The notes under the pieces were generated by a model. That model worked only from the letters and a program-made list of their open reading frames with translations, was not told the DNA's origin and searched no databases. This document shows positions 1-62,800 of a stretch of 64,000 nt of DNA, one piece after another (position 1 is the stretch's first letter; every line of letters begins with the position of its first letter). Location of the stretch: positions 5,498 through 69,497 of the forward strand of contig WRBH01000003.1 in NCBI GenBank assembly GCA_009784665.1. Reading direction: 5' to 3'. A program made the position numbers and the translations under genes. The stretch comes from Bacillota bacterium (lineage in GTDB: Bacteria > Bacillota > Clostridia > Christensenellales > UBA1242).

Positions 1-288
1 ACATTGTCGACTGGTACTTATTCACCCAAGAACCCTTATATCGCAAATTTGCTGCTACCTGTGATGGGGCATCATATGTTGAATGCATTGTCGACAAAGG
101 GTATATTCGTTGGGTTGGGGTCGGCATGTTCTTCCCGAGCTACAAAAAATCGAACAATGCTGGCAATGGGGCTGACCGAGAAACAATCCAAGAACATTAT
201 CCGCGTCAGCTTCGGGCGATACAATACGCTTGACGAGGTCGAGGGGTTCCTGAAAGAACTTGCAAGTTCGCTGGAAGAGTTGTTATAA
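1..288 (+). CDS. cysteine desulfurase (NifS/IscS-like class V aminotransferase), C-terminal fragment; 5' end lies outside the window
   Basis: The frame is open from base 1. The translation has a GLGSACSS active-site Cys loop and an IRVSFGRYNT...EVEGFL tail. Stop TAA at 286-288. Confidence 0.8.
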   Translation, partial: TLSTGTYSPKNPYIANLLLPVMGHHMLNALSTKGIFVGLGSACSSRATKNRTMLAMGLTEKQSKNIIRVSFGRYNTLDEVEGFLKELASSLEELL

Positions 289-289
289 T
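260..289 (+). promoter_or_regulatory. sigma-A type promoter, leaderless start at 295
   Basis: TTGCAA(260-265)-18nt-TATAAT(284-289); ATG 5 nt downstream. Confidence 0.55.
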
Positions 290-294
290 AGACC

Positions 295-672
295 ATGTTT
301 AACAGAAATCAATTTGCGTATGACTCAAAGAGTGGTGACCTAACAATGCATATCCCAAGCCATATGGTATCTCTTGAAATAAACGAGGAGGATTTTGATA
401 ATCCAGGCATCCAACATTATGCAAGCTATCTTATTACCAACTATCCTGCAAACAAGGACAGAATCCTCAGATACATATACAATGACTTGAAGGAGTTTTA
501 TAATTACATCCCTGAGGCGGAATTTGTCCAAAAAGTTGGAAATCCAACAATCAGTATACTAAGTGACAACGACGCCGAATTCGTGTATCTAGAATCGCAA
601 TTGGACGAGCACCTGATAACCCTAGAGGTCACGGGCAACTATGAACTCTCCTATGTAACATGTGATGGCTAG
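295..672 (+). CDS. hypothetical protein (125 aa)
   Basis: Intact ORF with a promoter directly upstream; I recognise no motif. Confidence 0.6.
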   Translation: MFNRNQFAYDSKSGDLTMHIPSHMVSLEINEEDFDNPGIQHYASYLITNYPANKDRILRYIYNDLKEFYNYIPEAEFVQKVGNPTISILSDNDAEFVYLESQLDEHLITLEVTGNYELSYVTCDG

Positions 673-674
673 TA

Positions 675-703
675 TTGACAATTTCTATGGTTTGTGGTAA
701 GAT
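675..703 (+). promoter_or_regulatory. sigma-A type promoter, leaderless start at 709
   Basis: TTGACA(675-680)-17nt-TAAGAT(698-703); ATG 5 nt downstream. Confidence 0.6.
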
Positions 704-708
704 ATTGT

Positions 709-1038
709 ATGACATCACAAGAATGGGGAAATGACTTGGAGGATAAGGTCAGATTCAAGACTAAAGTATTTTTTACTGCAATAAAGCGGTCATTTGACAA
801 AGAGCAGAAATTAGGCAAGCTGAGATACATCAAAAACTATTGCAAAGATGCTCAAGAACTTTTTGAAGTTCTCACATCACAAGTCAAGATGGAAATTGGT
901 AAAGATGGTAGGGAAATATTTCATGCCGACGATAATGGCAAACTGATTATGCGACAACCAAGTCTGTTTGATAAAATGTTGGCTAGAGAGCAAATCGCGA
1001 ATAGAAGGGGAATGGCGAAAGAATTGGGGGAGTATTAA
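709..1038 (+). CDS. hypothetical protein (109 aa)
   Basis: The ORF-track start at 694 (GTG) lies inside the promoter spacer. The first ATG at 709 fits the leaderless spacing. Confidence 0.6.
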   Translation: MTSQEWGNDLEDKVRFKTKVFFTAIKRSFDKEQKLGKLRYIKNYCKDAQELFEVLTSQVKMEIGKDGREIFHADDNGKLIMRQPSLFDKMLAREQIANRRGMAKELGEY

Positions 1039-1090: not shown

Positions 1091-1119
1091 TTGACAAGAC
1101 TCAACATGTGCGTTAAAAT
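1091..1119 (+). promoter_or_regulatory. nusA promoter (leadered transcript)
   Basis: TTGACA(1091-1096)-17nt-TAAAAT(1114-1119), followed by a 52-nt leader with SD AGGAGG at 1161-1166. Confidence 0.6.
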
Positions 1120-1171
1120 TGTGGCAATACTAAGGCGGGCGTGGGTCCGCTTTTACTTTGAGGAGGTAAGT

Positions 1172-2242
1172 ATGATGAAGAGTAAAGAATTTTTCGCCGC
1201 ATTGGAACAAATGGCGGGCGAGCGTAACATGACAATCGAGGAAATTATCGCGGACTTTTCCGAGGCTCTAACTATTGGGCTGCGTAAAATGTTCGGCGAA
1301 GGGCGTGGAGTTCGTGTTGAATTGGATCACAAGAAGAACACAATCAAGGTCACCGCATACCGTGTGGTTGTCGACACAGACGATGTCGAGGACTGGGAAC
1401 GCGAAGTATGCTGGTCAGAGGCCAAGGAAATCAAGCCTGACTGTCAACCTGGTGACATTATCGAGGAAGAAGTTAATCTGAAGGACTTAGGTCGTGTTGC
1501 GGCAATTACCATGAAGCAATTTATGAACCAAAAAAACCGCGAGAGGACACGCGAATCTGCGTTGCAAGAAATTAACGCCCGTGCTGACCAAATTATCACC
1601 GCACGAATTACAAGGGCCGACAGGGATAGTTATCATTTGGAAATTCCAGGCAGTTCTATCGAAGGAATTTTGAACACTCGTGGACAAATCCCGGGGCAAG
1701 CACACCGAGTCGGCGAATTTATCAAGGTATATGTAAACCCAACATTTGACGACCGCAGAGGCGAAATTTATGTTACCCGTTCAACACCGCAATTTGTTAA
1801 AGCGTTGTTTGACCTGGAGGTTCCAGAGTTTGGCCGTGGCGAGGTTATCGTCAAGGCAATTGCAAGGGAAGCGGGCTACAGGACAAAATTATGTGTGACC
1901 AGTGAAGTCGAGGGTATTGATCCAATCGGGGCCTGCGTCGGTTCAAAAGGCAGCCGTATTCAAAATGTTCTTGCGGAACTGGGCGGTGAAAAGATAGACC
2001 TTATTCCATGGTCTGATGAACCTCTGGAATTCATCGCTGCGGCCCTAAGCCCATCACCAGTAGTCAGTGTCGAGGCTGTCGAAGGTGAACAGCGTGCTAG
2101 GGTAATCGTTCCAAACGACAAACTGTCCCTAGCCATCGGAAAAGGCGGTATGAATGTGCGTCTTGCGGCGAAACTGACTGGCTGGAAAATTGATGTTCTG
2201 TCTGAAGAAAAAGCCGCGGCAATGGCGGCGGAAAACAGCTAA
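1172..2242 (+). CDS. nusA: transcription termination/antitermination factor NusA
   Basis: Has an S1 domain plus two KH domains (GACVGSKGSRIQ, LAIGKGGMNVRLAAKLTGWKIDV). SD at 1161-1166. The 1091 start in the ORF track falls on the promoter. Confidence 0.95.
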   Translation: MMKSKEFFAALEQMAGERNMTIEEIIADFSEALTIGLRKMFGEGRGVRVELDHKKNTIKVTAYRVVVDTDDVEDWEREVCWSEAKEIKPDCQPGDIIEEEVNLKDLGRVAAITMKQFMNQKNRERTRESALQEINARADQIITARITRADRDSYHLEIPGSSIEGILNTRGQIPGQAHRVGEFIKVYVNPTFDDRRGEIYVTRSTPQFVKALFDLEVPEFGRGEVIVKAIAREAGYRTKLCVTSEVEGIDPIGACVGSKGSRIQNVLAELGGEKIDLIPWSDEPLEFIAAALSPSPVVSVEAVEGEQRARVIVPNDKLSLAIGKGGMNVRLAAKLTGWKIDVLSEEKAAAMAAENS

Positions 2243-3895
2243 CTAAAACGGCAATTCATCCTCTGGTTCTGGATTATAAATCGCTGCGGTTTGATAGCTG
2301 GATTGTTCTTGGGTCGCTTCGGCAATCTTTTGATAAACTTGATTTGCTTTTTCAAAAATTTCTTTTTCTTGGGTATGGTCCTTGAATAATTCATTAACCA
2401 ATTGGTTCAACTCCTCAAAATTATCTCGTCCTATAAATGATGCCAGACTGAATGGGCTGCCATTCAGTACCGCGTCTATTACTTCTTCCCGATAATCGCG
2501 GACAAGAGGGGCCAGAAGTTTTCGGCAGGACTGACCGTACCCAGATATTTTACTATCTGATTTTGTTCGCTCTTTTGGTTCAAGCAAGTATACCCCTTTT
2601 GACATCAGGTACGCCCTAGCCTCCAGTGCAAATGTATCCGTCAATATCTCGTTTAGGATTTCGAACTCTCGTTTTTCCGTATTTATATCGTTATTCTTCG
2701 CATGAAAGATGTCTAATCCAGCACTCCTGTTAAATGTATTAGTAGCAATATGGATAAGCTCGTGCAAGATGGTGAACATCAAATTACCAATAGGCACGAG
2801 CCCAGAAGATAGGGTAAACATCATCAGGGCTGGTTGGGTATTCATCATACAGGTTTTGTTCCTGGAAACATTCTCATATATATTCTTATAAAGTTCTCTA
2901 TTGTTTTCTGGAGTAACGCCAATTTCCTCACACATGGTTATAAAGTCGGGGCGCATACTAATAACCTTTCGCTGATAGTCCTCTCTATAGGATTCACCCA
3001 ATTTATCTATCTTTTCAAATTCTTCTTTTGAAGGGATTATGTCGGAGTATTTCTGCAGCAGTTCCATATGCTCCAAAACCTCTTCCCGTGTTTTTGGACT
3101 TTTGATTCTATTCTCTTCAAGAATTTCCAGCTTTTGTAAAAAATTTCGCTGTAGCCAAATCACAGAACTAACACTGGATGGATCCTGTTCACCTGAATCA
3201 AGGAACTTTTGTATCTTGTCCATCGCGTCCCCGTCAAATCGTTCAAGATCGGTCGAAAAAACACCCGCATGCATTTGCCCGAGTAATATTTCTTTGTTTT
3301 TCTCGGGGCCCATATTGAATAACTTTCTTAACCCGCTGGGCAGCAGAGGGAAAACATCTTGGAAAAATCTTTGATGCAGCCCAGCGTGTATGAAATCTCT
3401 CCGATCTTGTTCTGCAGCGGCGTCATCATGGATGTCGTTAAAATTCTCTCTATATTCAAGTGCCTTTGCATGATATTCATCGCCCAGTTGCTTGAACCAT
3501 TCATTTTTAATTCCTTTCTCATCATCGGGTCGGTTTATGGCCGCATAGTCATACCAAGTGCTTGATCCAAAATTTCCAAAAATTGAGGATATCAAGTCAC
3601 TTGGCTTGCCATGCCATTGGCCTGCATAATCCACCCAATTGGTGTGAAACGATGATGTGTCAAGGCCAATCTTTTCTGCCAGCTCGTACGACATTTCTTG
3701 CAATTTCATATTGTATACCGCGTCTGCATGTTGCTTCAGACCGAGAGGGTCTTGATAGCATGCGGTAACGAAGTTATCCAACTTGTGGCGAATCTGACCT
3801 GCATATTGCTTTCCGAATACCTTCGTCAGGGCCTCTGTCACCGCGGGAGTGCACTCACGGATTTTCTGAGGGGTAATTTCAAGGTCAAAGTCCAT
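2243..3895 (-). CDS. hypothetical protein with HExxH zinc-metallopeptidase-like motif (550 aa)
   Basis: Motif FTILHELIHIATNTF with a downstream EILNEILTD. SD GGAGGTGA lies just upstream of ATG 3895. It overlaps the upstream cistron by 11 nt. Confidence 0.7.
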   Translation of the reverse strand: MDFDLEITPQKIRECTPAVTEALTKVFGKQYAGQIRHKLDNFVTACYQDPLGLKQHADAVYNMKLQEMSYELAEKIGLDTSSFHTNWVDYAGQWHGKPSDLISSIFGNFGSSTWYDYAAINRPDDEKGIKNEWFKQLGDEYHAKALEYRENFNDIHDDAAAEQDRRDFIHAGLHQRFFQDVFPLLPSGLRKLFNMGPEKNKEILLGQMHAGVFSTDLERFDGDAMDKIQKFLDSGEQDPSSVSSVIWLQRNFLQKLEILEENRIKSPKTREEVLEHMELLQKYSDIIPSKEEFEKIDKLGESYREDYQRKVISMRPDFITMCEEIGVTPENNRELYKNIYENVSRNKTCMMNTQPALMMFTLSSGLVPIGNLMFTILHELIHIATNTFNRSAGLDIFHAKNNDINTEKREFEILNEILTDTFALEARAYLMSKGVYLLEPKERTKSDSKISGYGQSCRKLLAPLVRDYREEVIDAVLNGSPFSLASFIGRDNFEELNQLVNELFKDHTQEKEIFEKANQVYQKIAEATQEQSSYQTAAIYNPEPEDELPF

Positions 3896-4223
3896 CGCTC
3901 ACCTCCGAAACAAGTTTGTCAATCTGTGCGGTCAAGACATGAAACCCAGGTGGGTATGTCGCATGTCCTGATACCTCGTGCGATAACATCTGGCCTTCAA
4001 AGATACTAATTTTCCAGCCCTCGCCATCCAATTGTGTGGTGTCCGTATACTCGCCCTTCCATCTTCGCGTTATTGAGATTAAGTGTTGGGCGAACTCCTC
4101 TGCGTATGGTTGTTCCAACGACCACGCTCTACCGTTATATTCCACAAAGCATTCTTCGCCTGTAGCAATACGGAACAGGAAAGTCTGTCCTCGAACACGC
4201 CGTTCCATTCTGAATTCGGTCAT
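3885..4223 (-). CDS. hypothetical protein (112 aa), first cistron of a 2-gene minus-strand operon
   Basis: The start was moved to Met27 (4223), which lies 8 nt downstream of a minus-strand TACACT -10. The longer ORF would run across the divergent promoter. Confidence 0.6.
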   Translation of the reverse strand: MTEFRMERRVRGQTFLFRIATGEECFVEYNGRAWSLEQPYAEEFAQHLISITRRWKGEYTDTTQLDGEGWKISIFEGQMLSHEVSGHATYPPGFHVLTAQIDKLVSEVSDGL

Positions 4224-4224
4224 C

Positions 4225-4254
4225 TTGACAAAGTGTATCACTTTTTGGTATAAT
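4225..4254 (+). promoter_or_regulatory. sigma-A type promoter, leaderless start at 4260
   Basis: TTGACA(4225-4230)-18nt-TATAAT(4249-4254); ATG 5 nt downstream. Confidence 0.65.
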
Positions 4255-4260
4255 CGGCAA
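4232..4260 (-). promoter_or_regulatory. sigma-A type promoter, near-leaderless start at 4223
   Basis: Minus strand TTGCCG(4260-4255)-17nt-TACACT(4237-4232); ATG 8 nt downstream. Confidence 0.5.
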
Positions 4261-5378
4261 TGACGAAAAAATGGGCAATAGGCAGATTGGCGAAAACTCA
4301 TATGATTGATCTAGCCAGTGACAAGTTCGCAAATCTGACTTTGGCACAATTGGGAATTGGTAATATAACACTTGATAATGTCGGGATAGAGGCACCCGAA
4401 GCAAAGAAAAGACTGATCCAATTCTTCGGTGCAAACAAGGCACAGCAGGGGTTGCAAAGTATCCCAGACGACTTGCGTTCGGAGGTTCTGCGGGAAATTG
4501 CAAGAGGTCATGGCAAAAAAACGACAGACATTCCACATTACAGCAGAACGAAAAGACGGAACATAGCAGATTGGACTGACGAGGATACTATCTCATTGCG
4601 TTTAGCCAGGCATGATGTCAACGGAGAAATATCAAACGAGTCGTTGTTTCGTGAATATGACATCATTGACCAAAGATATTTAATCAACAGGGCAGATGTG
4701 GACATATCTTCTACCTTGCACAATCTGTATCACGCGAAACTGGCAACAATGAATAAAGGAACCCTTAGATACCAGGAAAAAGCTGACTTGATACGAATAC
4801 TGGATTTGCTGAAAATTCTTAAAACTTATGACGCATCTGTTTTAATCTCGAATGGTCTTATAAATTTTGCAGACCTAAACATTGATGCGACACATAATTA
4901 CCTAGAGGAAGGTGCAATTTCAAAACGCGATTTCGAGGCAAGAAGCCAATTTTTCACAGACATGAAAGGTGGTATAGGTAGTAAAAGTGACATGCCAAAA
5001 ACATATGAAGATGCCCTGCATAGAGTTGCCTCCATACGACAAGTCGGCGTTACCGATGGGAACAGCGGTGCGGGTTCAATCCTTCTACGATTTGTTAACC
5101 TACTGCCTACTGATATCTCGCATGACCAGGCAATGGAGGAGTCGCGAAAGATAATGAAGTTGATGGAGGCGGGATTTTGGAATAAAAGTAACTTTTCAAT
5201 AGGAAGGGGACCAATAAGATTCGAGGTTGGAAAAGACGACCCCGAGGCAACCCATGCTCTTGGGGCGATGGTCGGGCGTTCTATGGGGGAGCCCAATATA
5301 TCTGATTACCTTGTCAATCCAACATTGGTCCAGCTGCAATCGCAACTCCCTCCTTCTCAAGGCTTGACGATAACTTGA
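4260..5378 (+). CDS. hypothetical protein (372 aa)
   Basis: Long intact ORF that begins exactly at the predicted transcription start; no recognised motif. Confidence 0.7.
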   Translation: MTKKWAIGRLAKTHMIDLASDKFANLTLAQLGIGNITLDNVGIEAPEAKKRLIQFFGANKAQQGLQSIPDDLRSEVLREIARGHGKKTTDIPHYSRTKRRNIADWTDEDTISLRLARHDVNGEISNESLFREYDIIDQRYLINRADVDISSTLHNLYHAKLATMNKGTLRYQEKADLIRILDLLKILKTYDASVLISNGLINFADLNIDATHNYLEEGAISKRDFEARSQFFTDMKGGIGSKSDMPKTYEDALHRVASIRQVGVTDGNSGAGSILLRFVNLLPTDISHDQAMEESRKIMKLMEAGFWNKSNFSIGRGPIRFEVGKDDPEATHALGAMVGRSMGEPNISDYLVNPTLVQLQSQLPPSQGLTIT

Positions 5379-5392
5379 TTTAGAGGGATAAT
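5364..5392 (+). promoter_or_regulatory. sigma-A type promoter for ylxR, very short leader
   Basis: TTGACG(5364-5369)-17nt-GATAAT(5387-5392); ATG 5403 is 10 nt downstream. Confidence 0.5.
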
Positions 5393-5402
5393 AAGTCTGA
5401 TT

Positions 5403-5657
5403 ATGAAAGATCAAAGCAAAGAAAGAATCTGTTGTGTGTGTCGCAAGAAAGACTTGGCATCGACACGAATCAGGGTCGCCCGAATCGACGGGCAGTTTAT
5501 TGTTGACAAGGTCGGCAATGCCAACGGTCGCGGAGCATATGTATGCATTCCATGTGTCCCAGAGGCGGTAAAAAGGAAAGCATTTAACCGGTCGTTCAAG
5601 AGTCCAGTTCCGCAGGAGGTGTATGATTCTCTTCTTGCGTCTTGTTCCTACCAATGA
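5403..5657 (+). CDS. ylxR: YlxR/RnpM family (DUF448) RNA-binding protein
   Basis: RICCVCRKK...RIRVARIDGQFIVD...GRGAYVC motif pattern. It occupies the classical position between nusA and infB. Confidence 0.85.
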   Translation: MKDQSKERICCVCRKKDLASTRIRVARIDGQFIVDKVGNANGRGAYVCIPCVPEAVKRKAFNRSFKSPVPQEVYDSLLASCSYQ

Positions 5658-6387
5658 TGGACGGGTCAAAACGCTTGCGTTTGCCTTCGAACAGCATGCG
5701 TGATTCTGCCAATCGCCACTCTTCCACCTTGATACCTTCAAGGCATAGATAGATTAAATCTTCATACTGCAAAATCATGTCCTCGGGCGAGTTATCGTGA
5801 ACTTTGTTGAAAGAATTCTCGACCATTGCCTCACGAAGCGTCCTAAGCAATTGCGGTAGGTCATGAGGTGTTTCCTGTTCATGTAGATACGCCCCTTCGG
5901 GTTTAGCAATTTCTGGGGCTACTGCATCATGGTGCAATTCTTGGAAGTTTTCGATAAAGGCGACCAGCTTCAAGACCTCTGGGTAGGTAATCCTTTTACC
6001 ATGCGAGTGGACTTGAGTAATCAAGGGGGAATTACTCTTTAGCAAGACTCTCTTTGCGAATGTTCTATTTTCTGGCCCCATGTCAGAGGGATCGATATCG
6101 TGTAGTTTAAGAAAGTCCGAAATACCATGTATGATATCCGTTGGTTCGGTAATATACACAATATGTTGAGTCCCTTCGTATGCCGACACATAAGACTGCC
6201 AACCATTAGGGGTTTCAGTCTTCCACCCGGTATTATATACAAGCCTAGATTGTCCTTCGGGATCCGTAATCACAAATAGCCTCTGGGAGTAAGGGTTTCT
6301 CTCCATGTCGAAGTTAGTTCGTGATGACATATAGCTATTAAAGTCAGCTTTGTTAGCAGGGTGATTTTTGTGCCTATATTTTTTCAC
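5596..6387 (-). CDS. hypothetical protein (about 263 aa)
   Basis: The in-frame GTG at 6387 lies 5 nt downstream of a strong minus-strand promoter. ATG 6330 is an alternative start. The 3' end overlaps the ylxR 3' end by 62 nt. Confidence 0.6.
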   Translation of the reverse strand: MKKYRHKNHPANKADFNSYMSSRTNFDMERNPYSQRLFVITDPEGQSRLVYNTGWKTETPNGWQSYVSAYEGTQHIVYITEPTDIIHGISDFLKLHDIDPSDMGPENRTFAKRVLLKSNSPLITQVHSHGKRITYPEVLKLVAFIENFQELHHDAVAPEIAKPEGAYLHEQETPHDLPQLLRTLREAMVENSFNKVHDNSPEDMILQYEDLIYLCLEGIKVEEWRLAESRMLFEGKRKRFDPSIIGRNKTQEENHTPPAELDS

Positions 6388-6392
6388 TGAAA

Positions 6393-6422
6393 ATTGTACC
6401 ACGACCAGTCTATGGAAGTCAA
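6393..6422 (-). promoter_or_regulatory. sigma-A type promoter, leaderless GTG start at 6387
   Basis: Minus strand TTGACT(6422-6417)-18nt-TACAAT(6398-6393); GTG 5 nt downstream. Confidence 0.5.
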
Positions 6423-6427: not shown

Positions 6428-7018
6428 TCAAAAATCGAGCGAGTGATCAACACCGTCAATATTGCGGGCAAGTAGCTCGATTGGTTCGACTCTGTGAAAA
6501 TTTGTGATTGCCTCAAATAGGCGCATAGTCAACTCGGCATCCTTTACGCTTTTAGACCAGTCATTACAAACTTTTTCCACAGCCATTGCATTGCAGGCAT
6601 CTCTTAGCGATATCCCGTATTTTGCATGCCACGGCATTTCAGATTTATAGATTTTTTGGACATCAAAGCTGGTTAATTCAACCCTTGGCAACCGATGCCA
6701 CTTGGTCGAGTATTTAAGGAAGTTATAGTCCGACGGAGTGCTGAAGGCGAAATTGATATATGTTGGATCCTCCAGCACTTCGACAACTCGGGGAAAGTTC
6801 CGGAGGAATACAGCAGGGTCAGCGACAAGTTGTAATAATTTTTTCTTTTGTTCTTTGCTGGATGTGTCTCTCAGTCGTTGTGCCAACTCGGGTTTTATAA
6901 GCAGGTCTTGCTTGTCTGTAATCTGGAAATCCGAATTCGTTCTGACGATACCAATTGACGAGGTCAGTGCAGTTCCTTTGTGGTTAAATGCACCTATATC
7001 AAAGAACTGAAACTTCAT
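6428..7018 (-). CDS. hypothetical protein, DEDD (DnaQ-like) exonuclease fold with degenerate catalytic motifs (196 aa)
   Basis: Exo I-like FFDIGAFN (Glu replaced by Gly), Exo II-like FSTPSDYNFL, and Exo III-like SKSVKDAELTMRLF (His replaced by Ser). Confidence 0.55.
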   Translation of the reverse strand: MKFQFFDIGAFNHKGTALTSSIGIVRTNSDFQITDKQDLLIKPELAQRLRDTSSKEQKKKLLQLVADPAVFLRNFPRVVEVLEDPTYINFAFSTPSDYNFLKYSTKWHRLPRVELTSFDVQKIYKSEMPWHAKYGISLRDACNAMAVEKVCNDWSKSVKDAELTMRLFEAITNFHRVEPIELLARNIDGVDHSLDF

Positions 7019-7023
7019 TTAAA

Positions 7024-7053
7024 ATGATATCATAAAACCCTTGCAAAAGTCAA
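7024..7053 (-). promoter_or_regulatory. sigma-A type promoter, leaderless start at 7018
   Basis: Minus strand TTGACT(7053-7048)-18nt-TATCAT(7029-7024); ATG 5 nt downstream. Confidence 0.55.
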
Positions 7054-7069: not shown

Positions 7070-7079
7070 AGTTAATTAG

Positions 7080-10073: not shown

Positions 10074-10079
10074 TTCTAT

Positions 10080-54162: not shown

Positions 54163-54167
54163 ATGTG

Positions 54168-56045: not shown

Positions 56046-56050
56046 GGCGA

Positions 56051-56080
56051 AGTATAGCATAGCGGAATGCCAACTGTCAA
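56051..56080 (-). promoter_or_regulatory. sigma-A type promoter, leaderless start at 56045
   Basis: Minus strand TTGACA(56080-56075)-18nt-TATACT(56056-56051); ATG 5 nt downstream. Confidence 0.6.
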
Positions 56081-56692: not shown

Positions 56693-58459
56693 TTAGCCAA
56701 CTGCTTCAGGAAGGTCAACAGGGAGCTTCGGCTTGCCTTTTGGCTTGGTTGCTTTATCATTCTTTTTAGCTTGCTTGTCTACCAACTTAGCCATCTTGGC
56801 GGCGTCTTTGGTGATGAGGGCTTTGATCTCGTCGTCGGAGAGTTTGTCTTTGATTGTACTGTGGTATGCAATTACCATTGCATCATAGAGATTTTCGAAC
56901 CCTAGGTCTGCCCATTGTGGAAATGCCTCCTCAAATGCAGAACGGGTTTCTGCCATTGCTAAGTGGTCGGTCATGTTCTCGCGGGTTGTATGGGTAAATA
57001 TATGGGCAAAGTTTGCGTCTTTTAACAGGAAGCTATGCGATACCAAGACAAGCAAATTTTCAAAATTCTCTTTGTATTTATAGTCGTTAACAAAGTCCTT
57101 CTTGTGCGATTGCATGTACAAGATATATAGTTTTTCCGAGATTCGAACAAATGATGTGCCTTCCTCGATAAGAGAGGTGAACATTGGCATCAGCTGTGGA
57201 TGGCTCATGAAACGCTCGACATCAACAAGAAGCTCGTTGAATTTATAAAACTTATCACCTGTTGTTACCATGGTGTGTGTAACGCTTTGTGTCCCGTCCG
57301 GCTTTTTCGATACGACAAGACGGTTATACGGACTAATTCCGAATTTATCTTTATAGCTATCACGATTCATCATGAAGCACGCGGCGGTCTCGGTGAAGTA
57401 CTTGCGGATTTTTGCCAAGATGTTTTCGCGACTGAGGATTTTTTTCTTTTCGTCAGCTTTTTCTTTTCGCTTTGCTTGTGCAAGTAAAAGATTCGCCCGC
57501 TTTTGCTTTTCAATTTCTTCTGCCCGATTTCTGGCTTCTTCCAGCTCGGCAATTTTAGCCAGAAGCTCTGCATGCTCTTCGTCACTGTGCGTTCCGATTA
57601 GGCCTTCTGTCTTTTTTTTTTCTGCCTGTAACTCTTCCAACTCTTTTTCAATAGCCTTTTTGTGTTCTTCCAGTTCAGCAACCGCGGCTTCACTTATTTC
57701 TTCGTCAAGAAACGCGTCTTCTTGAACAGATACAGGTTCAGGTTGCGGCTCTGGTTCAGGTTGGGGTGGGGGAGTCTCCTCGACAACCACAACAACTGGC
57801 TCTGGTTCTGGAACGAATGTTGGCTCTTCTACTATTGGTGTGTCTTGCAGTGGCTGGATATTTTCTTGTTCTGTCGCGTAGTAGTTGTTGACAATGATTG
57901 ATGGGCCAGTATCTTCTTCTTTGTACTTGTTCAGGTTTTTATCATAAATAATGTTGATACGACGATTGTCGACTGGGCGGCTACGCTCGAATAATATCAG
58001 CAAGAAGTAAACAATCAAATAAATCGCGGCGGGAATTGCACACAATAATCCAAGGGTAAGCAGGGCATCAGCAACTTCAAAGGAATTCTCAAACGCAAGG
58101 AATACAATCATGGCCAGTAACATCATGAACAGTCCGAATAATTCAATTGCAATCATTGCATTAATAATTCGGGCACCTTTCATAACTCGCACGAAACTGC
58201 CAACAAACCAGAATGCTATAAGGAATCCAATGAACGAAACTATAATCAAGATTCCAAGCCATGCCCAGAAAGTTAATCCCCAAAAGAATAATCCAAGCAT
58301 GAATAACAATGGTCCAAGTATCGAGGCACATATAATCCCTACTTTGTACCAAGTTTCATTTATTGAATCACGCATTCTTCCAGACCGCTTTTCTACAACC
58401 AAAGCAATCAAGAACATAACAGTCAGCACCACCCCTATCCCAAAAAGTATCGGACCCAT
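56693..58459 (-). CDS. membrane protein with N-terminal TM bundle, Pro-rich linker, Glu/Lys coiled coil and unknown C-terminal domain (588 aa)
   Basis: About six TM helices, then PPPQPEPEPQPEP, then an EELQAEKKKTEG...coiled coil. SD AGGGGG lies upstream. Confidence 0.7.
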   Translation of the reverse strand: MGPILFGIGVVLTVMFLIALVVEKRSGRMRDSINETWYKVGIICASILGPLLFMLGLFFWGLTFWAWLGILIIVSFIGFLIAFWFVGSFVRVMKGARIINAMIAIELFGLFMMLLAMIVFLAFENSFEVADALLTLGLLCAIPAAIYLIVYFLLILFERSRPVDNRRINIIYDKNLNKYKEEDTGPSIIVNNYYATEQENIQPLQDTPIVEEPTFVPEPEPVVVVVEETPPPQPEPEPQPEPVSVQEDAFLDEEISEAAVAELEEHKKAIEKELEELQAEKKKTEGLIGTHSDEEHAELLAKIAELEEARNRAEEIEKQKRANLLLAQAKRKEKADEKKKILSRENILAKIRKYFTETAACFMMNRDSYKDKFGISPYNRLVVSKKPDGTQSVTHTMVTTGDKFYKFNELLVDVERFMSHPQLMPMFTSLIEEGTSFVRISEKLYILYMQSHKKDFVNDYKYKENFENLLVLVSHSFLLKDANFAHIFTHTTRENMTDHLAMAETRSAFEEAFPQWADLGFENLYDAMVIAYHSTIKDKLSDDEIKALITKDAAKMAKLVDKQAKKNDKATKPKGKPKLPVDLPEAVG

Positions 58460-58546
58460 ATTACAACCCCCTTTGTAATTATTACATTATACTCAATAAT
58501 AATAAATAAAAATGCGTTTGTCTAATGATTTTTTACATAAATTCGT

Positions 58547-58576
58547 TTGACATTGGAGACAATAAGTTGGGACAAT
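58547..58576 (+). promoter_or_regulatory. sigma-A type promoter, leaderless start at 58582
   Basis: TTGACA(58547-58552)-18nt-GACAAT(58571-58576); ATG 5 nt downstream. Confidence 0.45.
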
Positions 58577-58581
58577 TAACT

Positions 58582-61437
58582 ATGAATTCAGGCAAATTTC
58601 GATTATTTAGCTTAATTTTCGCAGGTGTCTTCGTTTTCTGTGCCGTTGTTGCTGGGATCGTGATTGCAACGCCAGAGCAGCGTGCCGAGGCAAGCGTAGT
58701 ACAGACATTTACTCTAAACCATCCTGCTGGTGGAACACTTACAGTCAACAGGACGATAGGTGGAAATACGCCTCATGCATTTACCCGATCTGGTAACACT
58801 ATTACTGCTACTGGAACTTCTCGCTTTTATGTTAACAGGACTGGCAACAATTGGACATCTTCGAATATTGCAAACAATTTGTCTACGGTTGCTGTATCAG
58901 GTGATTTTGATTTGGAGGCCAGGTACAGATTCCATGATGATAGATTTAATGTAGTTGGTCGTCGTAACAGGTGGACTGGACAATGGCAAAATGTTGTAAG
59001 GACTCAGAATGACACTATAAGTTTATCCACTTATAATGTTGCTGGTCATGTCAGGTGGCGTCGTACAGATACCAATCAAGAAGCAAACAGCACATCGCAA
59101 ACAGGAGCATGGCATTCAAATAGGACATTTAGTGTCCCTTGGTCAGGAAATTGGACCACCATGTCAGTAACACGAAGCCTAGGAAGTAATGGAGGACAAC
59201 TGGGTACCGTTGTGGTTGTCAGCCCAGTAGTGACAAATCGAACAATGACCTTCCATCTTAACCCAACAAGTGGCGGAGGAAGCATGACAGTCGCTGGAAC
59301 AAATGCCACTCATGGCAGTACTCGTACTATGGCACAAGGAACCGCTCACTCCATTGTCGCCAATGCTGCGGCAGGGTGGCAATTTTCTAACTGGCAAGTC
59401 ATTGCTGGAACAGCAACAATTACTAATGTTAATGCCGCCAGCACGACATTAACCATTGCGGCGTCTAATGCGACAATCAGGGCAAACTTCACGCAAATTC
59501 AGCGGACCATGACATTTCAATTGAACCCAGCCAGTGGAAGTGGAACGATGACGGTTGCGGGGACAAACGCAACACATAACAGCAGTCGTACTTTGACCCA
59601 AGGAACGAACCACGCAATTGTAGCCAAACCCGCATTCGGATGGAGCTTCTCGCATTGGGATGTTGCTGCTGGCTCGGCAACGATTGCAAACGCATCTGTC
59701 GCCAGCACGACATTTACGGTTGGGGCTGGAAATGCAACTATCAGGGCGAATTTCTCGCAACAAACACATACTGTCAACTTTTTTACAAATCCTGTAAGTG
59801 GCGGTGGGACATTTACACTGGGTGGAACTGCCGCAGCCCATGGTGGTTCTAGGGCCCTAGTGCAGGGCACTGTTCACAATTTGGTTGCAACTGCCGCAAC
59901 ACATTGGACATTCTCGCATTGGACAGTTTCGGGAGTAGGTTCTTCTATTGCTAATGTGAATGCCGCCAGCACAACATTTACCTTGGGTACAGCTACCGCT
60001 AGTATAACCGCACATTTCCGCGTCAACTTTGGAACACCACCGCCACCTCCTGAACCCGCCCCCGAAAATTGGGAGTTTGGATGGAATATACTTCGACTGC
60101 ATTTTGGCTCGGGTAACGCAGCATCAAATCCATTACCAGGATTTGATGTGAACGAAAACAGTCCAACTGCAACCAGGTTCTTTGACCCAACCAATGCGGC
60201 ATCCCGTAATTTACCAACGGCTGCCCAAATGAACGCGTGGGCGACGACGCAACCTGGGTTGGAAGATAGGGCATTCATAGGTTGGTATACTAACAGTAAT
60301 TTTGAAACTGCTGAAGGGAAGCGGGTATCTCAGATTCCTGTGGGAATGACAGGAGTTATCAGATATTATGCAAGGTGGGAGGATGGACGAGCTATATTCC
60401 GTATCGCCTCCGGAGGGGCTCACGGCCAGGCTATCCGTAATAATGGCGAGTTACTAGGATGGGGATTCAATCCTGCCTCAGGGATTAATTCATCCATATC
60501 TGGAACTCCTTTTGTGACCAGGATTGGTACAGCAAATAATTGGGCACAGATTTCTGCATTTGGCGATCATACTCTTGCAATAACCACAAATGGTGAACTT
60601 TGGGCCTGGGGCAATAATGGCACTGGTCAATTAGGCGATGGAACAACAGGGCTTCGCCATACACCTATGCGAATTGGTACAAGAACTGACTGGGTGCAAA
60701 TTGCGGGTGGAATGCATCAAAGTTTTGCTATAACCGCCAGCGGTGAGTTGTGGGCGTGGGGACAAAATAATCACGGTCAGCTTGGTGATGGAACAACAAT
60801 TGATCGTCATTCGCCGGTACGAATTGGCACAAGAACTGACTGGGCATATGTTTCGTCTGGTGGGTCAGGTTTTAACTTCAGTAGTCGGACTATGGCGATA
60901 ACCAGAGGAGGAGAGCTTTGGTCTTGGGGCGGTGATAGCTGGGTACCAGGTGGTATTCCAGTGCGGATTGGTACTGCAAGCAACTGGGCACGCGTTTCAG
61001 TGGGTACACAGCATCAGATGGCATTGACAACGAATGGCGAGTTATGGGCTTGGGGTGTTAATCAATTTGGGCAACTCGGCGATGGAACAACAACAAATCA
61101 ACCTGTTCCAGTTAGAATTGGAATACGAACAGATTGGGCTCATATTTCTGCAGGTGGAATTAGCTCGCATGCTATAACCACTGGTGGCGAACTCTGGGCT
61201 TGGGGGCAAAACAGTAACGGTCGACTTGGCGATGGGACGACAACGGACAGTCATACCCCTATCAGAATTGGGACACGAACAGATTGGCTCCAAGTCGAGG
61301 GAAGTCAAACCCATCACACTCTTGCTATAACCAGAAGTGGATATTTGTTTGCTTGGGGGGGAAGTAACCTAGGACAGTTGGGACTTGGTTCCCCTAATAA
61401 TCAGACTATCTTGACTCCAACACGGGTTAATACCTGA
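58582..61437 (+). CDS. secreted or anchored protein: 3 tandem InlB-B-repeat-like Ig domains, poly-Pro linker, one Listeria-Bacteroides repeat, 7-blade RCC1-type beta-propeller
   Basis: Signal-anchor MNSGKFRLFSLIFAGVFVFCAVVAGIVIA. Three 88-aa repeats ending in ATIRANF. RCC1 blades are recurring GELWAWG.N..GQLGDGTT units. Confidence 0.88.
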   Translation: MNSGKFRLFSLIFAGVFVFCAVVAGIVIATPEQRAEASVVQTFTLNHPAGGTLTVNRTIGGNTPHAFTRSGNTITATGTSRFYVNRTGNNWTSSNIANNLSTVAVSGDFDLEARYRFHDDRFNVVGRRNRWTGQWQNVVRTQNDTISLSTYNVAGHVRWRRTDTNQEANSTSQTGAWHSNRTFSVPWSGNWTTMSVTRSLGSNGGQLGTVVVVSPVVTNRTMTFHLNPTSGGGSMTVAGTNATHGSTRTMAQGTAHSIVANAAAGWQFSNWQVIAGTATITNVNAASTTLTIAASNATIRANFTQIQRTMTFQLNPASGSGTMTVAGTNATHNSSRTLTQGTNHAIVAKPAFGWSFSHWDVAAGSATIANASVASTTFTVGAGNATIRANFSQQTHTVNFFTNPVSGGGTFTLGGTAAAHGGSRALVQGTVHNLVATAATHWTFSHWTVSGVGSSIANVNAASTTFTLGTATASITAHFRVNFGTPPPPPEPAPENWEFGWNILRLHFGSGNAASNPLPGFDVNENSPTATRFFDPTNAASRNLPTAAQMNAWATTQPGLEDRAFIGWYTNSNFETAEGKRVSQIPVGMTGVIRYYARWEDGRAIFRIASGGAHGQAIRNNGELLGWGFNPASGINSSISGTPFVTRIGTANNWAQISAFGDHTLAITTNGELWAWGNNGTGQLGDGTTGLRHTPMRIGTRTDWVQIAGGMHQSFAITASGELWAWGQNNHGQLGDGTTIDRHSPVRIGTRTDWAYVSSGGSGFNFSSRTMAITRGGELWSWGGDSWVPGGIPVRIGTASNWARVSVGTQHQMALTTNGELWAWGVNQFGQLGDGTTTNQPVPVRIGIRTDWAHISAGGISSHAITTGGELWAWGQNSNGRLGDGTTTDSHTPIRIGTRTDWLQVEGSQTHHTLAITRSGYLFAWGGSNLGQLGLGSPNNQTILTPTRVNT
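59239..60030 (+). repeat. 3 x 264-bp in-frame tandem repeat (88-aa domain repeats) inside the RCC1-protein gene
   Basis: Repeat units start at 59239, 59503 and 59767 (RTMTFHLNP / RTMTFQLNP / HTVNFFTNP). The copies have diverged. Confidence 0.85.
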
Positions 61438-61445
61438 AGATAAGG

Positions 61446-62765
61446 TTACAATACATATTTCCGCAGGTCCGTCAGGCGAATAATCTGCGACTGGTTGTCT
61501 GTTATGAATTTTTTGTCAACCTTAAGGGTGTGTGGCTCCTTTCCATCTGCGTTAAAGGCAATATCTTCCAAAAGGATTTCCATGATGTTGGAAAGACGCC
61601 TTGCTCCGATATTTTCTTGGGTTTCGTTTTCTTGCTCTGCTAATTCGGCGATGAGTTTTAGGGCAGTTGCATCAAAAGATAGGCTTACTTTGTCAACGGC
61701 AAGTAGCTCGCTGTATTGCTTGATGAGTGAGTTTTCGGTTTGAGTTAAAATTTTATAGAAGTCATCTTTACCTAAGTTTTGTAATTCAACCCGAATAGGG
61801 AAGCGTCCTTGCAGCTCAGGGATCAGGTCTTGAACACGACTGATGTGGAATGCTCCAGCAGCAATGAACAGGATATAATCTGTCTTTATAGGGCCGTGCT
61901 TGGTTTGTATTGTCGAACCCTCCACGATAGGAAGTATATCCCTTTGCACACCTTCACGGCTGACTTCGGGACCGCTGCCGCCACCACCCTTACTTGCAAT
62001 TTTGTCAATTTCATCAATGAAGATAATTCCGTGTTGTTCGGCTCTTGTAATTGCTTCTTGTTGCAGAGCTTCATTGTCTATCAGTTTATCCATCTCTTCA
62101 TTAAGCATTTCTTTACGGGCTACATGGACAGTTACTTGGCGTTTTTTTGTTTTCTTTGGCAGAACATCACCGAAGATGCTACCTATATCCATACCCATCA
62201 TTTGAAAGTCCATTCCTCCTGGGATGTTTATATTTTTAATAGCAGACTGGGTTATGTCCATCTCGATTAGAAAGTCTTCCAGCTTGCCGTCTTTAAGTTC
62301 GAATTCACATTGTGCTCGTAAAACTTCTATAGGCACCTCGGTTGCGGTTTGTTTCTTAGCAGCAATTATTTTTTCGAGTATACGCTTTTCGACTTCGGTT
62401 TTTGCTTTTTCCTCGACCTCTACGCGTTTTTCGTCTCGTACAAGGCGTATAGAGACCTCTACAAGGTCACGAACCATGCTCTCGACATCTCGGCCTACAT
62501 AGCCGACCTCTGTGTATTTGGTCGCCTCTACCTTGATAAAAGGGGCCCCAACTAATTTCGCCAAACGCCTGGCTATTTCGGTTTTGCCGACGCCTGTTGG
62601 TCCTTTCATTATGATATTCTTTGGTGTTATCTCGTCTCGCACTTCGGCAGGTAATTGGGCACGGCGGTATCTGTTACGCAGTGCAACTGCAACAGCACGC
62701 TTTGCAGCGTGCTGTCCGATTATATATCTGTCAAGTTGAGCTACTATCTGTTTTGGTGTAAGCAT
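61446..62765 (-). CDS. hslU: ATP-dependent protease ATPase subunit HslU
   Basis: MLTPKQIVAQLD N-terminus, Walker A GPTGVGKTEIARRLA and Walker B IIFIDEIDK. Start at ATG 62765 (the ORF-track TTG is at 62771). Confidence 0.96.
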   Translation of the reverse strand: MLTPKQIVAQLDRYIIGQHAAKRAVAVALRNRYRRAQLPAEVRDEITPKNIIMKGPTGVGKTEIARRLAKLVGAPFIKVEATKYTEVGYVGRDVESMVRDLVEVSIRLVRDEKRVEVEEKAKTEVEKRILEKIIAAKKQTATEVPIEVLRAQCEFELKDGKLEDFLIEMDITQSAIKNINIPGGMDFQMMGMDIGSIFGDVLPKKTKKRQVTVHVARKEMLNEEMDKLIDNEALQQEAITRAEQHGIIFIDEIDKIASKGGGGSGPEVSREGVQRDILPIVEGSTIQTKHGPIKTDYILFIAAGAFHISRVQDLIPELQGRFPIRVELQNLGKDDFYKILTQTENSLIKQYSELLAVDKVSLSFDATALKLIAELAEQENETQENIGARRLSNIMEILLEDIAFNADGKEPHTLKVDKKFITDNQSQIIRLTDLRKYVL

Positions 62766-62771
62766 AGGCAA

Positions 62772-62800
62772 AGTATAGCCTTAACACAATACTTTGTCTA
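62772..62800 (-). promoter_or_regulatory. hslU promoter, leaderless start at 62765
   Basis: Minus strand TAGACA(62800-62795)-17nt-TATACT(62777-62772); ATG 6 nt downstream. The -35 overlaps the upstream stop codon. Confidence 0.55.

Follow-up and report, generated by a model that had tools for sequence, protein, structure and literature searches.

The closest described systems are found in Deinococcus-Thermus, where a −10 motif lies next to approximately 30–46% of the ORFs (PMC12340547, PMC3160421); in D. deserti, 60% of the mRNAs are leaderless and 47% begin exactly at the start codon (PMC4007540). Actinobacteria (Mycobacterium, Streptomyces) and GeneMarkS-2 group C combine a Pribnow box for first genes with an RBS elsewhere, and group C genomes typically have 25–50% leaderless transcripts (PMC6028130). 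Among Firmicutes, 3.4% of the genomes fall into group C (PMC6028130); the mean share of leaderless genes is 4.2% and the highest 16.6% (PMC3160421). These surveys agree with the initial annotation, which had called leaderless mRNAs rare in Bacillota, although precedents exist in Lactococcus-Streptococcus, Oenococcus-Leuconostoc and Mycoplasma, with 2.4–16.6% of genes (PMC3160421). A literature search combining leaderless with Christensenell* found nothing relevant.

The window analyzed here (the whole 64-kb stretch of DNA; ~15 kb of flanks completed the sample) stems from an uncultured termite-gut MAG near the Christensenellaceae "Gut cluster 13", whose genomes measure ~1.1–1.3 Mb. Its gene content had been described as Bacillota-like, and the window indeed belongs to Clostridia, close to Christensenellaceae. 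As in Deinococcus-Thermus (D. deserti, D. radiodurans, T. thermophilus), −10 boxes adjoin ORFs that have no Shine-Dalgarno (SD) site, while SD sites occur elsewhere; the leaderless majority comes there from transcriptomes and is predicted here from sequence, and the present host differs in being a member of Clostridia with 44% GC. The Pribnow box at first genes and the RBS elsewhere are shared with Actinobacteria and group C. In contrast to the high-GC groups, in which only TANNNT is seen (PMC3160421), the promoters have a full near-consensus −35, often a TGn, and a modal gap of 5 nt before the start codon. The low-/mid-GC Bacillota background and the TATAAT-type box with a strong TG extension resemble the Lactococcus-Streptococcus, Oenococcus-Leuconostoc and Mycoplasma cases. 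The leaderless mechanism itself is already known, but its extent is unusual for Bacillota.

Promoters and SD sites at the gene starts of the window

We classified 56 gene starts, 30 of which (54%) had a strong promoter ending 5–10 nt upstream; seven further starts had a weaker leaderless-type promoter, bringing the share to 66%, in a class (Clostridia, Christensenellaceae-related) different from that of the earlier Firmicutes cases. Among the 30 strong starts, the gap was 5 nt in 18, 6 nt in seven and 8–10 nt in five, and the spacer 17 nt in 18, 18 nt in 11 and 16 nt in one. TGn was present in 14, most promoters had at most two mismatches in 12 to the sigma-70/sigma-A consensus, 29 genes started with ATG and one with GTG, and 27 lacked any SD match of at least 5 nt. 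All 16 plus-strand −35/−10/start triplets of the initial annotation were recovered at their coordinates (spacers 16–18 nt, gaps 5–6 nt), as were the four starts for which it gave gaps of 8–10 nt (7080, 5403, 43472, 33960). From its 14 minus-strand starts, ten were strong (6387, 7018, 33921, 35934, 39412, 39952, 40660, 56045, 56624, 62765), whereas four were weaker (4223, 25863, 29675, 27354). The murI and dinB genes are additional weaker candidates absent from that annotation. The predicted units, given as −35, spacer, −10, gap and start codon, are as follows.

260..297 (+), 125-aa hypothetical protein, leaderless: TTGCAA-18-TGnTATAAT-5-ATG
675..711 (+), DUF4897 protein, leaderless: TTGACA-17-TGnTAAGAT-5-ATG; NCBI start identical
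4221..4260 (-), moderate leaderless candidate, ATG 4223: TTGCCG-17-TGnTACACT-8-ATG; NCBI has GTG 4241, 6 codons upstream
4225..4262 (+), leaderless unit: TTGACA-18-TGnTATAAT-5-ATG, consensus 12/12; NCBI start identical
5364..5405 (+), ylxR, near-leaderless: TTGACG-17-GATAAT-10-ATG; NCBI start identical
6385..6422 (-), leaderless unit, sole strong GTG start: TTGACT-18-TGnTACAAT-5-GTG; NCBI start identical
7016..7053 (-), leaderless unit: TTGACT-18-TGnTATCAT-5-ATG
7041..7082 (+), infB (IF-2), near-leaderless: TTGCAA-17-TATAAT-10-ATG; NCBI start identical
10045..10082 (+), lipoprotein-like, leaderless: TTGACA-17-TATCAT-6-ATG
12516..12553 (+), leaderless unit: TTGACG-18-TATAAT-5-ATG; truB ends 11 nt before the start and the promoter lies mostly within the truB 3' end
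25861..25897 (-), rsmD, moderate leaderless candidate: TGnTACAAT-5-ATG, no good −35; NCBI start identical
25866..25879 (+), murI (glutamate racemase), weak candidate, ATG 25877: CATATT-5-ATG; the weak −10 overlaps the rsmD −10 on the minus strand
27341..27377 (+), phosphorylase family, leaderless: GTGACA-17-TATACT-5-ATG
27352..27389 (-), weak leaderless candidate, start 27354: best −10 TATACA or TACAAA, no canonical TANNNT at this start; NCBI start identical
29673..29709 (-), moderate leaderless candidate: TTGCTA-17-TACACT-5-ATG; NCBI start identical
29693..29732 (+), dnaG, near-leaderless, ATG 29730: TAGACA-17-TATACT-8-ATG; NCBI protein 571 aa
33919..33955 (-), DMP19-like protein, leaderless: TTGCAA-17-TGnTATAAT-5-ATG
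33922..33962 (+), ATP-dependent-ligase-like gene, near-leaderless: ATGACA-17-TATACT-9-ATG; NCBI start identical
35932..35968 (-), leaderless unit: TTTACA-17-TGnTAATAT-5-ATG
35962..35997 (+), MFS transporter, moderate candidate: TTGTAA-16-TGnTAAGAT-5-ATG; start absent from public annotations
37181..37217 (+), leaderless unit: TTGACA-17-TGnTAGAAT-5-ATG; NCBI start identical
37916..37952 (+), leaderless unit: TTGACC-17-TATAAT-5-ATG
39410..39447 (-), leaderless unit: TTGATA-17-TGnTATAGT-6-ATG
39950..39986 (-), GNAT acetyltransferase, leaderless: TTGACA-16-TAAACT-6-ATG; NCBI start identical; an AAAGGAG overlaps the −10 region
40658..40694 (-), leaderless unit: TTGCCA-17-TGnTACAAT-5-ATG; NCBI start identical
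40688..40724 (+), rpoZ, leaderless: TTGGCA-17-TATAAT-5-ATG; NCBI start identical; profile from residue 1
43435..43474 (+), def, near-leaderless: TTGACA-17-CATAAT-8-ATG; NCBI start identical; profile from residue 1
44717..44755 (+), rpe-like, leaderless candidate: TTGACT-18-TACAAT-6-ATG; start absent from public annotations; promoter entirely within the fmt 3' end
47217..47237 (-), dinB, moderate candidate, GTG 47219: TGcTATACT-9-GTG
47451..47488 (+), leaderless unit: TTGAAA-18-TGnTATACT-5-ATG; NCBI start identical
48529..48566 (+), comM/yifB, leaderless: TTGACA-18-TATGAT-5-ATG; N-terminus aligns with orthologs
52019..52057 (+), topA, leaderless: TTGACA-18-TATTCT-6-ATG
54134..54170 (+), radical SAM protein, leaderless: TTGACC-17-TGnTATCTT-5-ATG; NCBI start identical
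56043..56080 (-), leaderless unit: TTGACA-18-TGnTATACT-5-ATG; NCBI start identical; ENA/Logan call +5 aa
56622..56659 (-), hslV, leaderless: TTGACT-17-AATAAT-6-ATG; NCBI start identical
58547..58584 (+), 951-aa protein, leaderless: TTGACA-18-TGnGACAAT-5-ATG; NCBI start identical
62763..62800 (-), hslU, leaderless: TAGACA-17-TATACT-6-ATG; NCBI start identical

For dnaG, ATG 29730 is more likely the start than ATG 29724, whose gap would be only 2 nt; the 571-aa NCBI protein fits 29730.

A gene-blind scan for near-consensus TTGACA/16–18/TATAAT promoters found 51 sites in the window, compared to 17.3 ± 4.2 in 100 dinucleotide shuffles, and an ATG stood exactly 5 or 6 nt past the −10 box at 22 of these 51 sites, with 0.70 expected (shuffle maximum 4); the highest ranks of a second, independent promoter scan were the same sites. 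The positional enrichment of TANNNT, proposed with the initial annotation as a check, was computed for the starts of the window: of the 51 classified starts, 26 had the motif beginning at position −11 or −12, vs. 3% expected from all 2364 ATGs of the window (p = 4e−26). An adjacent promoter and an SD site were mutually exclusive (Fisher p = 1e−5). The 34 leaderless candidates often had an extended −10 (T at −14 in 25, G at −13 in 20), a pyrimidine at −1 (23/34) and an A at +1 (33/34). The leaderless-type pattern is confirmed and greatly exceeds what chance would give.

A GGAGG-type SD at a spacing of 4–12 nt and without an adjacent promoter was present in 17 genes, and the SD-bearing starts listed by the initial annotation were correct on re-inspection. 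Two kinds of start coexist, in line with its claim of two initiation modes: GGAGG-type SDs are found at internal cistrons and at seven first genes with a leader, the latter having 23–52 nt between the −10 box and the ATG (including nusA and rpmB).

1091..1174 (+), nusA, leadered first gene: TTGACA-17-TAAAAT, 52 nt to ATG, SD AGGAGGT
3893..3915 (-), internal cistron: SD GGAGGTG, 11-nt overlap with upstream gene
9684..9706 (+), rbfA, internal cistron: SD AAAGGGGG
10735..10757 (+), nrnA-like, internal cistron: weak SD AAAGG
11822..11903 (+), truB: SD AGGAGG, weak possible promoter 49 nt upstream
12950..12972 (+), internal cistron: SD AGGAG, 4-nt overlap with upstream gene
13825..13888 (+), giant gene (3832 aa), leadered: TTGATA-18-AATACT, 31 nt to ATG, SD AAGGAGG
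31418..31440 (+), internal cistron: SD AAAGGAG
32910..32932 (+), internal cistron: SD AGGAG
40902..40924 (+), priA, GTG start, abuts rpoZ: SD GAGGTG
42880..42902 (+), internal cistron: SD AAGGAG
43895..43917 (+), fmt, internal cistron: SD AGGAGG
45300..45354 (+), rpmB, leadered: TTGCCA-17-TGnTATACT, 23 nt to ATG, SD GGAGGT
48079..48134 (+), leadered gene: TTGACA-17-TAGAAT, 24 nt to ATG, SD AAGGAGG
50088..50110 (+), dprA, internal cistron: SD GGAGGT
51144..51200 (+), HTH gene, leadered: TTGAAA-17-TAGAAT, 25 nt to ATG, SD AAAGGAG
58457..58524 (-), leadered gene: TAGACA-17-TATTAT, 36 nt to ATG, SD-like AAAGG(GGG)

Just beyond the window, rpsP is also an SD-led first gene with a short leader.

With 30 strong and seven weaker leaderless promoters vs. 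seven leadered ones, ~80% of the genes having a recognizable promoter of their own in this one 64-kb window are of the leaderless type, which is above the group C range of 25–50% and, as a predicted level of leaderless expression, equal to or above Deinococcus. Four features of group C were found in the window, i.e., a −10 box at fixed distance, no SD there, SDs elsewhere and a substantial leaderless share, but the box-to-start distance is mostly 5–6 nt, compared to 6–8 nt in M. tuberculosis (GeneMarkS-2). AUG is almost exclusive among the strong leaderless starts (29/30), in contrast to mycobacteria, where GUG starts are common.

Expression model and competing readings

Most genes of this genome are very probably expressed from their own housekeeping promoter with a −10 box abutting the ATG, as leaderless mRNAs, and the rest are SD-led. 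Each gene of the first kind would have a sigma-A/sigma-70-type promoter (TTGACA, 17–18 nt, often TGn, TATAAT) whose −10 box is mostly 5 nt, at times 6 and rarely 8–10 nt away from the ATG, placing the transcription start at or near the A of the start codon, so that the predicted transcript would have no 5' UTR (0–4 nt at most) and no SD site. If these transcripts behave like those of mycobacteria and Deinococcus and like model mRNAs in E. coli, translation would begin by direct binding of 70S or 30S-IF2-fMet-tRNA to the 5'-terminal AUG, while a canonical GGAGG SD would serve the other genes, namely the closely coupled internal cistrons and a smaller part of the first genes. The geometry supports the leaderless reading of the initial annotation, as it fits a 5' UTR of at most 0–4 nt and SDs are absent there. 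A point against it is that, at a gap of 5 nt, the A of the ATG is the 6th base past the −10 box. E. coli RNA polymerase prefers to start at the 7th–8th base after the box; with this preference, the start would fall on the second or third base of the ATG (T or G) and the AUG would be truncated.

The proposal that position decides the mode was partly right: internal cistrons are SD-led, but ~15 co-directional leaderless-type genes lie −23 to 46 nt behind the stop codon of the preceding gene and have their own promoter inside its 3' end. Leaderless promoters interrupt units that form operons in relatives and are not simply markers of operon heads. Protein from such close genes might instead come mostly from read-through polycistronic mRNA, by re-initiation or 70S scanning without SD, the abutting promoters being real but supplementary or regulatory. 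The short distances are compatible with this, in relatives these genes sit in operons coupled by SDs, and intrinsic terminators are not enriched in the window, with terminator-like hairpins at the level of shuffles (13 vs. 12.2 and 25 vs. 17.6). We nevertheless regard it as unlikely, since the SDs present in orthologs were lost from these genes, truly coupled genes in the window retain strong SDs, divergent genes without any upstream transcript share the same architecture, and the exact 5–6 nt gap would be unexplained unless the promoter must place the AUG at the 5' end. Under the leaderless model, the co-directional genes probably occur on read-through mRNAs as well, in which their AUGs would be internal and without SD.

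The start codons themselves agree with NCBI/PGAP at 23 of the 27 looked up exactly (22 of 26 leaderless candidates and nusA), an agreement that is not fully independent because PGAP uses GeneMarkS-2+, which models promoter-adjacent starts. For 11 of the genes checked, the Prodigal-type calls of JGI, ENA and Logan place the start elsewhere than at the promoter-adjacent ATG, some being longer and some shorter. This disagreement, together with the many hypothetical products whose N-termini are uncheckable, would suit true starts at downstream SD-led in-frame codons, with the promoter-adjacent ATG merely lying in a short 5' UTR. Such a scenario is hardly credible, as only 3 of 35 leaderless candidates have a later in-frame start codon preceded by an SD-like sequence of at least 5 nt (all three weak), the differing Prodigal-type starts do not lie on SD sites, and conserved proteins align from their beginning: TopA, HslV, HslU and ComM with orthologs from residue 1–5, and RpoZ, Def, HslV, HslU and TopA with NCBIfam profiles from the first positions. 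HslV aligned from residue 1 in eight relatives, and the TopA N-terminus M-x-LVIIEGIGKK was conserved across the relatives inspected. It is also very improbable that the pattern is a peculiarity of this 64-kb region or an artefact of AT-rich intergenic composition and no genome-wide default. The data come from one window and the share in the 10-kb left flank is lower (2/7 genes leaderless-looking), but composition is excluded by the dinucleotide shuffles and by how ATGs are spread over other gaps, the window consists of ordinary housekeeping genes with no island, and eight unlinked loci from related genomes show the signature again.

Relatives and divergent gene pairs

In relatives down to 58% TopA identity the leaderless signature is weaker, covering 13–38% of genes with an ATG peak at gap 5–7, and it is almost absent from a more distant Clostridiales MAG (52% TopA identity) and from unrelated Clostridia and other control loci. 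Orthologs alternate between the leaderless and the SD-led state: comM (L019, L021, L026) and hslU (L019) are leaderless in relatives too, topA is SD-led and adjoins dprA in relatives, and hslV-hslU are contiguous in L025, whereas they have separate promoters in the window genome. New promoters would have split the ancestral units dprA-topA and hslV-hslU. As part of the favored model, the trait is very probably shared by a Christensenellaceae-related clade, with its strongest development in this genome.

Leaderless-dominant expression would thereby reach a mid-GC lineage of Clostridia, while surveys depict Firmicutes as almost purely SD-led. Close relatives with the same genes in either state offer paired natural SD-to-leaderless conversions, as well as natural examples of new promoters fragmenting operons. 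The 11 differing Prodigal-type starts imply that MAG catalogues of this clade likely contain systematic errors in protein N-termini, signal peptides and intergenic features. More tentatively, this reduced-genome termite-gut lineage may have taken leaderless use further than any bacterium described, with ~55–65% of genes and ~80% of transcription units leaderless, sigma-A promoters embedded in upstream 3' ends, ancestral operons dissolved into one-gene units, interleaved or bidirectional promoters shared by divergent genes, and orthologs switching mode among genomes only 60–80% identical; if so, this clade, with its cultivable Christensenella relatives, would offer a natural setting for the study of initiation-mode switching.

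Divergent leaderless pairs are 13–61 nt apart, which leaves no room for another promoter or leader. In the pairs 27354/27375 and 25863/25877, the opposite-strand −10 boxes overlap, one box per pair being non-canonical, and the predicted transcription starts are separated by 21 and 14 bp. Bidirectional promoters with −10 symmetry have divergent starts 7–25 bp apart, most commonly 18 bp (Warman et al., bioRxiv 10.1101/2020.01.31.928960). Judged by sequence, both pairs fall in this range, although at distances other than the commonest one, and they differ from those promoters in that both predicted transcripts would be leaderless, so that the start codons themselves are 14–21 bp apart.

Promoters placed at start codons

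We scanned the window for promoters without regard to genes, allowing at most 2 total mismatches to TTGACA, a -35/-10 spacer of 16–18 nt and TATAAT, and insisting on both the A and the last T of the -10 hexamer. The scan returned 51 sites, versus 17.3 ± 4.2 in 100 dinucleotide-preserving shuffles. At 22 of them an ATG lay exactly 5 or 6 nt past the -10 box (0.70 in the shuffles, maximum 4), while every other gap between 0 and 30 nt accounted for 0–4 ATGs, and a composition artefact was ruled out by the shuffles together with this distribution. The same promoter sites took the top ranks in a separate consensus scan. The plus-strand promoters listed in the initial annotation (TTGACA-like and TATAAT-like boxes, spacers of 16–18 nt, ATG at a gap of 5–6 nt) were correct in every coordinate, as were the gaps of the four cases assigned 8–10 nt. 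The positional -10 enrichment that it had anticipated was present among the starts of the window: TANNNT began at -11 in 20/51 classified starts and at -12 in 6/51, against an expectation of ~3% derived from the window's 2364 ATGs taken together (p = 4e-26 for -11/-12). Regarding the extended -10 motif (TGn), 34 candidates had T at -14 in 25 cases and G at -13 in 20, and no clear difference between the leaderless and Shine-Dalgarno (SD) classes was seen at bases +4 and -1.

Gene starts with readable upstream sequence (n = 56) were then classified, a strong leaderless candidate being one with a promoter of score at least 2.5 that ends 5–10 nt before the start. Thirty starts qualified, with gaps of 5 nt (n = 18), 6 nt (n = 7) or 8–10 nt (n = 5) and spacers of 17 nt (n = 18), 18 nt (n = 11) or 16 nt (n = 1); TGn was present in 14 and ATG was the start codon in 29. 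Seven further candidates were weaker (4223, 25863, 25877 (murI), 27354, 29675, 35995, and 47219 (dinB)), 17 genes were SD-led (GGAGG-type SD, 5 nt or longer, without adjacent promoter), and two starts fell clearly into neither class. An adjacent promoter and an SD excluded each other (Fisher p = 1e-5). The leaderless-type share was thus 54% of the window's genes for strong candidates and 66% for all candidates. Seven SD-led genes headed their units, with a promoter 23–52 nt upstream: nusA, truB (weak), the 3832-aa gene, rpmB, 48132, 51198, and 58459. As ~80% of the genes with their own promoter were of leaderless type, calling this mode the default is fair for the window, and infB, topA, dnaG, def, and rpoZ are among the leaderless set. 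The 3832-aa gene is a giant SD-led ORF with a short leader and a hydrophobic N-terminal segment (13886-25384, plus strand), and in L001, the locus of the relative Lab288P1_bin80, the same neighbouring genes are followed by a homolog of 31% identity.

One strong promoter is an orphan as to protein genes because a tRNA gene lies downstream of it:

47223-47252, plus strand: orphan strong promoter, TTGACT-18-TATAAT, 11/12 matches
47297-47382, plus strand: tRNA-Tyr(GTA) gene, predicted by ARAGORN
47412-47435, plus strand: terminator 3' of tRNA-Tyr(GTA), 10-bp hairpin and T-run

An Rfam scan of the window at gathering thresholds gave zero entries and missed this tRNA as well.

Correctness of the start codons

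Since the starts in the initial annotation had been picked by the promoter rule itself, they had to be checked by other means. NCBIfam profiles of RpoZ, Def, HslV, HslU, and TopA matched from the first residues, and the TopA N-terminus M-x-LVIIEGIGKK was common to the window and four directly inspected relatives. TopA and HslV aligned from residue 1 with eight relatives each, ComM and HslU from residue 1–5 with theirs, and the alignments of all four proteins landed on the start codon of the relative. Scanning ten leaderless-type proteins against Pfam told little about most N-termini, as the proteins were hypothetical or the matches internal. By exact look-up, the window's proteins belong to a metagenome-assembled genome at NCBI (MCL2586849-MCL2586903, locus tags FWE31_, contig of 76.6 kb), and its sequence is also found on an ENA contig of 132 kb. 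Of 27 starts compared in this way, 23 were equal to those of NCBI, and 22 of these 23 are leaderless candidates; the agreement is only partly independent because such starts are modelled by GeneMarkS-2+, on which PGAP relies. The other four differed: NCBI uses GTG 4241 instead of 4223 and ATG 29730 instead of 29724 (a better promoter fit, the gap being 8), while 35995 and 44753 occur in none of the annotations compared. The true starts could alternatively lie downstream and be SD-led, but an in-frame start with an SD-like site was found downstream in only 3/35 candidates, all three sites being weak, and this possibility was ruled out. Prodigal-type calls in JGI/IMG, ENA or Logan differed from those of NCBI in 11 genes looked up, the differing starts (e.g., 6387, 25863, 29675, 37215, 40660, 47486, 56045, 58582) being of leaderless type throughout, which is the practical consequence for annotation.

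Overlapping genes and divergent pairs

About 15 co-directional leaderless-type genes start -23 to 46 nt after the preceding stop codon, and their promoters therefore lie within the 3' end of the upstream gene. Examples are:

284-289: -10 box TATAAT enclosing the upstream gene's stop codon TAA (286-288)
12535-12545: promoter within the upstream 3' coding end, one of several such sites
44717-44775: rpe-like gene (start 44753) overlapping fmt by 23 nt, the whole promoter within fmt

The initial annotation had tied the mode of initiation to operon position; SD-led and leaderless starts do coexist, but these ~15 closely trailing genes have leaderless promoters of their own, so that operon position determines the mode only in part. 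Promoters cut across what are operons in relatives. Terminator-like hairpins were not commoner in the window than in shuffles.

The distances of divergent leaderless pairs, measured start to start, form discrete classes:

61–62 bp (7018/7080, 35934/35995, 40660/40722): -35 boxes back-to-back or overlapping
37–39 bp (4223/4260, 33921/33960): promoters fully interleaved
21 and 14 bp (27354/27375 and 25863/25877): overlapping -10 boxes

The two promoters of a divergent pair probably cannot hold RNA polymerase simultaneously. Judging by its layout, the 21/14-bp class would fit the bidirectional promoters of Warman et al., in which divergent starts are 7–25 bp apart (bioRxiv 10.1101/2020.01.31.928960). 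The murI gene (glutamate racemase, MIIGVFDSGIGG; plus strand, ATG 25877), is missing from the initial list; only 13 nt separate its start from that of rsmD (25863), which runs divergently, and the -10 boxes of the two genes overlap on opposite strands (25863-25879). The 428-aa protein encoded at 33960-35246 (plus strand), hypothetical in the NCBI annotation, matched ATP-dependent DNA ligase families only below cut-offs (best E-value 2e-29).

Known leaderless systems, lineage and relatives

Sigma-70-type promoters initiate transcription 6–8 nt past the -10 box, and initiation at that distance would give mRNAs beginning at the AUG or within 4 nt of it. A caveat is that, with the modal 5-nt gap, the A of the ATG is the 6th base past the -10 box, one short of the optimum of E. 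coli RNA polymerase. That transcripts would nevertheless contain the whole AUG is suggested by the exactness of the spacing and by the fact that these ATGs are genuine N-termini. Gaps are 6–7 nt in documented Streptomyces leaderless examples (PMC3160421, Table 1) and 6–8 nt in M. tuberculosis (PMC6028130), in comparison with the modal 5 nt of the window. Translation of leaderless mRNAs without an SD is known from Deinococcus and mycobacteria (PMC4007540, PMC3898074, PMC4633059) and from E. coli model mRNAs (PMC9031893). Group C, the GeneMarkS-2 class of leaderless-rich genomes, holds 90% of Actinobacteria, 97% of Deinococcus-Thermus and only 3.4% of Firmicutes genomes, the last being 36 genomes (PMC6028130); judged by its sequence, the window shows the same phenomenon. 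Leaderless genes in Firmicutes average 4.2% (maximum 16.6%) and are concentrated in Lactococcus-Streptococcus, Oenococcus-Leuconostoc, and Mycoplasma, as compared with 36–46% in Deinococcus-Thermus (PMC3160421). The window's share of candidates, 54–66%, equals or exceeds the highest values seen in bacteria. The initial observation is confirmed, and its reading as leaderless initiation is supported; this would be an extreme case of a known phenomenon and not a new mechanism. Dominance at this level is not known to have been described in this class, and a search of the paper library that combined leaderless with Christensenell* brought up nothing of relevance; the main value of the finding is comparative and practical.

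The window has a GC content of 44%. By NusA, its closest species representative is WRBO01000014 (MAG Lab288P1_bin80, 70% identity), which its authors assigned to Christensenellaceae "Gut cluster 13" from the soil-feeding termite Labiotermes labralis, with an assembly of 1.12 Mb at 86.6% estimated completeness and 0% contamination (PMC7024585 supplement). TopA homologs range from 82% down to 52% identity, and several at 58–67% carry the name Christensenellaceae bacterium. The "Bacillota-like" gene content noted initially was thus rightly placed, NusA and TopA homologs pointing to Clostridia near Christensenellaceae. A PriA scan of metagenome contigs yielded relatives at ≤ 37% identity only, useless for close comparison. 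The size and completeness of the Lab288P1_bin80 assembly suggest that the lineage has undergone strong genome reduction; its genome is probably small, and the disappearance of leaders and operons may be connected with this reduction.

The promoter scan used on the window was also run on the 17–22 kb that surround topA in each of eight relatives, followed by classification of the called gene starts.

Leaderless-type sites in the window and in the topA loci of relatives (locus; TopA identity; sites per 10 kb; leaderless-type genes)
Window; 100%; 3.75; 30/56 (strong)
L019; 78%; 1.8; 4/23
L026; 73%; 0.9; 3/23
L020; 72%; 0.6; 2/13
L021; 69%; 2.7; 6/19
L022 (Christensenellaceae MAG); 63%; 4.1; 8/21
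L023; 61%; 0.9; 3/18
L024; 58%; 0.5; 3/15
L025; 52%; 0.45; 0/19

Sixteen unrelated loci (L002-L011, L013-L018; other Clostridia and a Ruminococcus MAG included) had 0 to ~1 site per 10 kb. A stringent scan of 12 kb of L001, the NusA-nearest reference genome, looked negative because this stretch is one tight SD-coupled nusA-infB operon; both of its independent gene heads look promoter-adjacent. On the left flank of the window (L027, 10 kb outside the initial view), 2/7 genes were promoter-adjacent, the gap being 7 in either case, and rpsP and two others were SD-led. The called start of the M64 peptidase/LRR lipoprotein gene there (1180-1290) has TTGACAtagTTGACC immediately before the ATG, and a second ATG is followed by AAGGAGGGG; both this start and its promoter are doubtful.

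Among these genomes, the initiation state of orthologs switches between leaderless and SD-led. The leaderless state holds for comM in the window, L019 and L021, and probably in L026; for hslV in the window, L022 and L024, with SD-led starts elsewhere; for hslU in the window and L019; and for topA in the window only, possibly also in L024, with SD-led starts in the other relatives, mostly directly behind dprA. The hslV gene of L026 carries a promoter of this kind too, but 17 nt with an SD lie between it and the ATG, and a small deletion or insertion would therefore be enough to switch the state. In the window (56091-62765), hslV and hslU lie ~5 kb apart, each with its own leaderless promoter and with two large genes of unknown function between them; in L025, a distant relative, the two genes adjoin each other, and their separation varies in relatives too.
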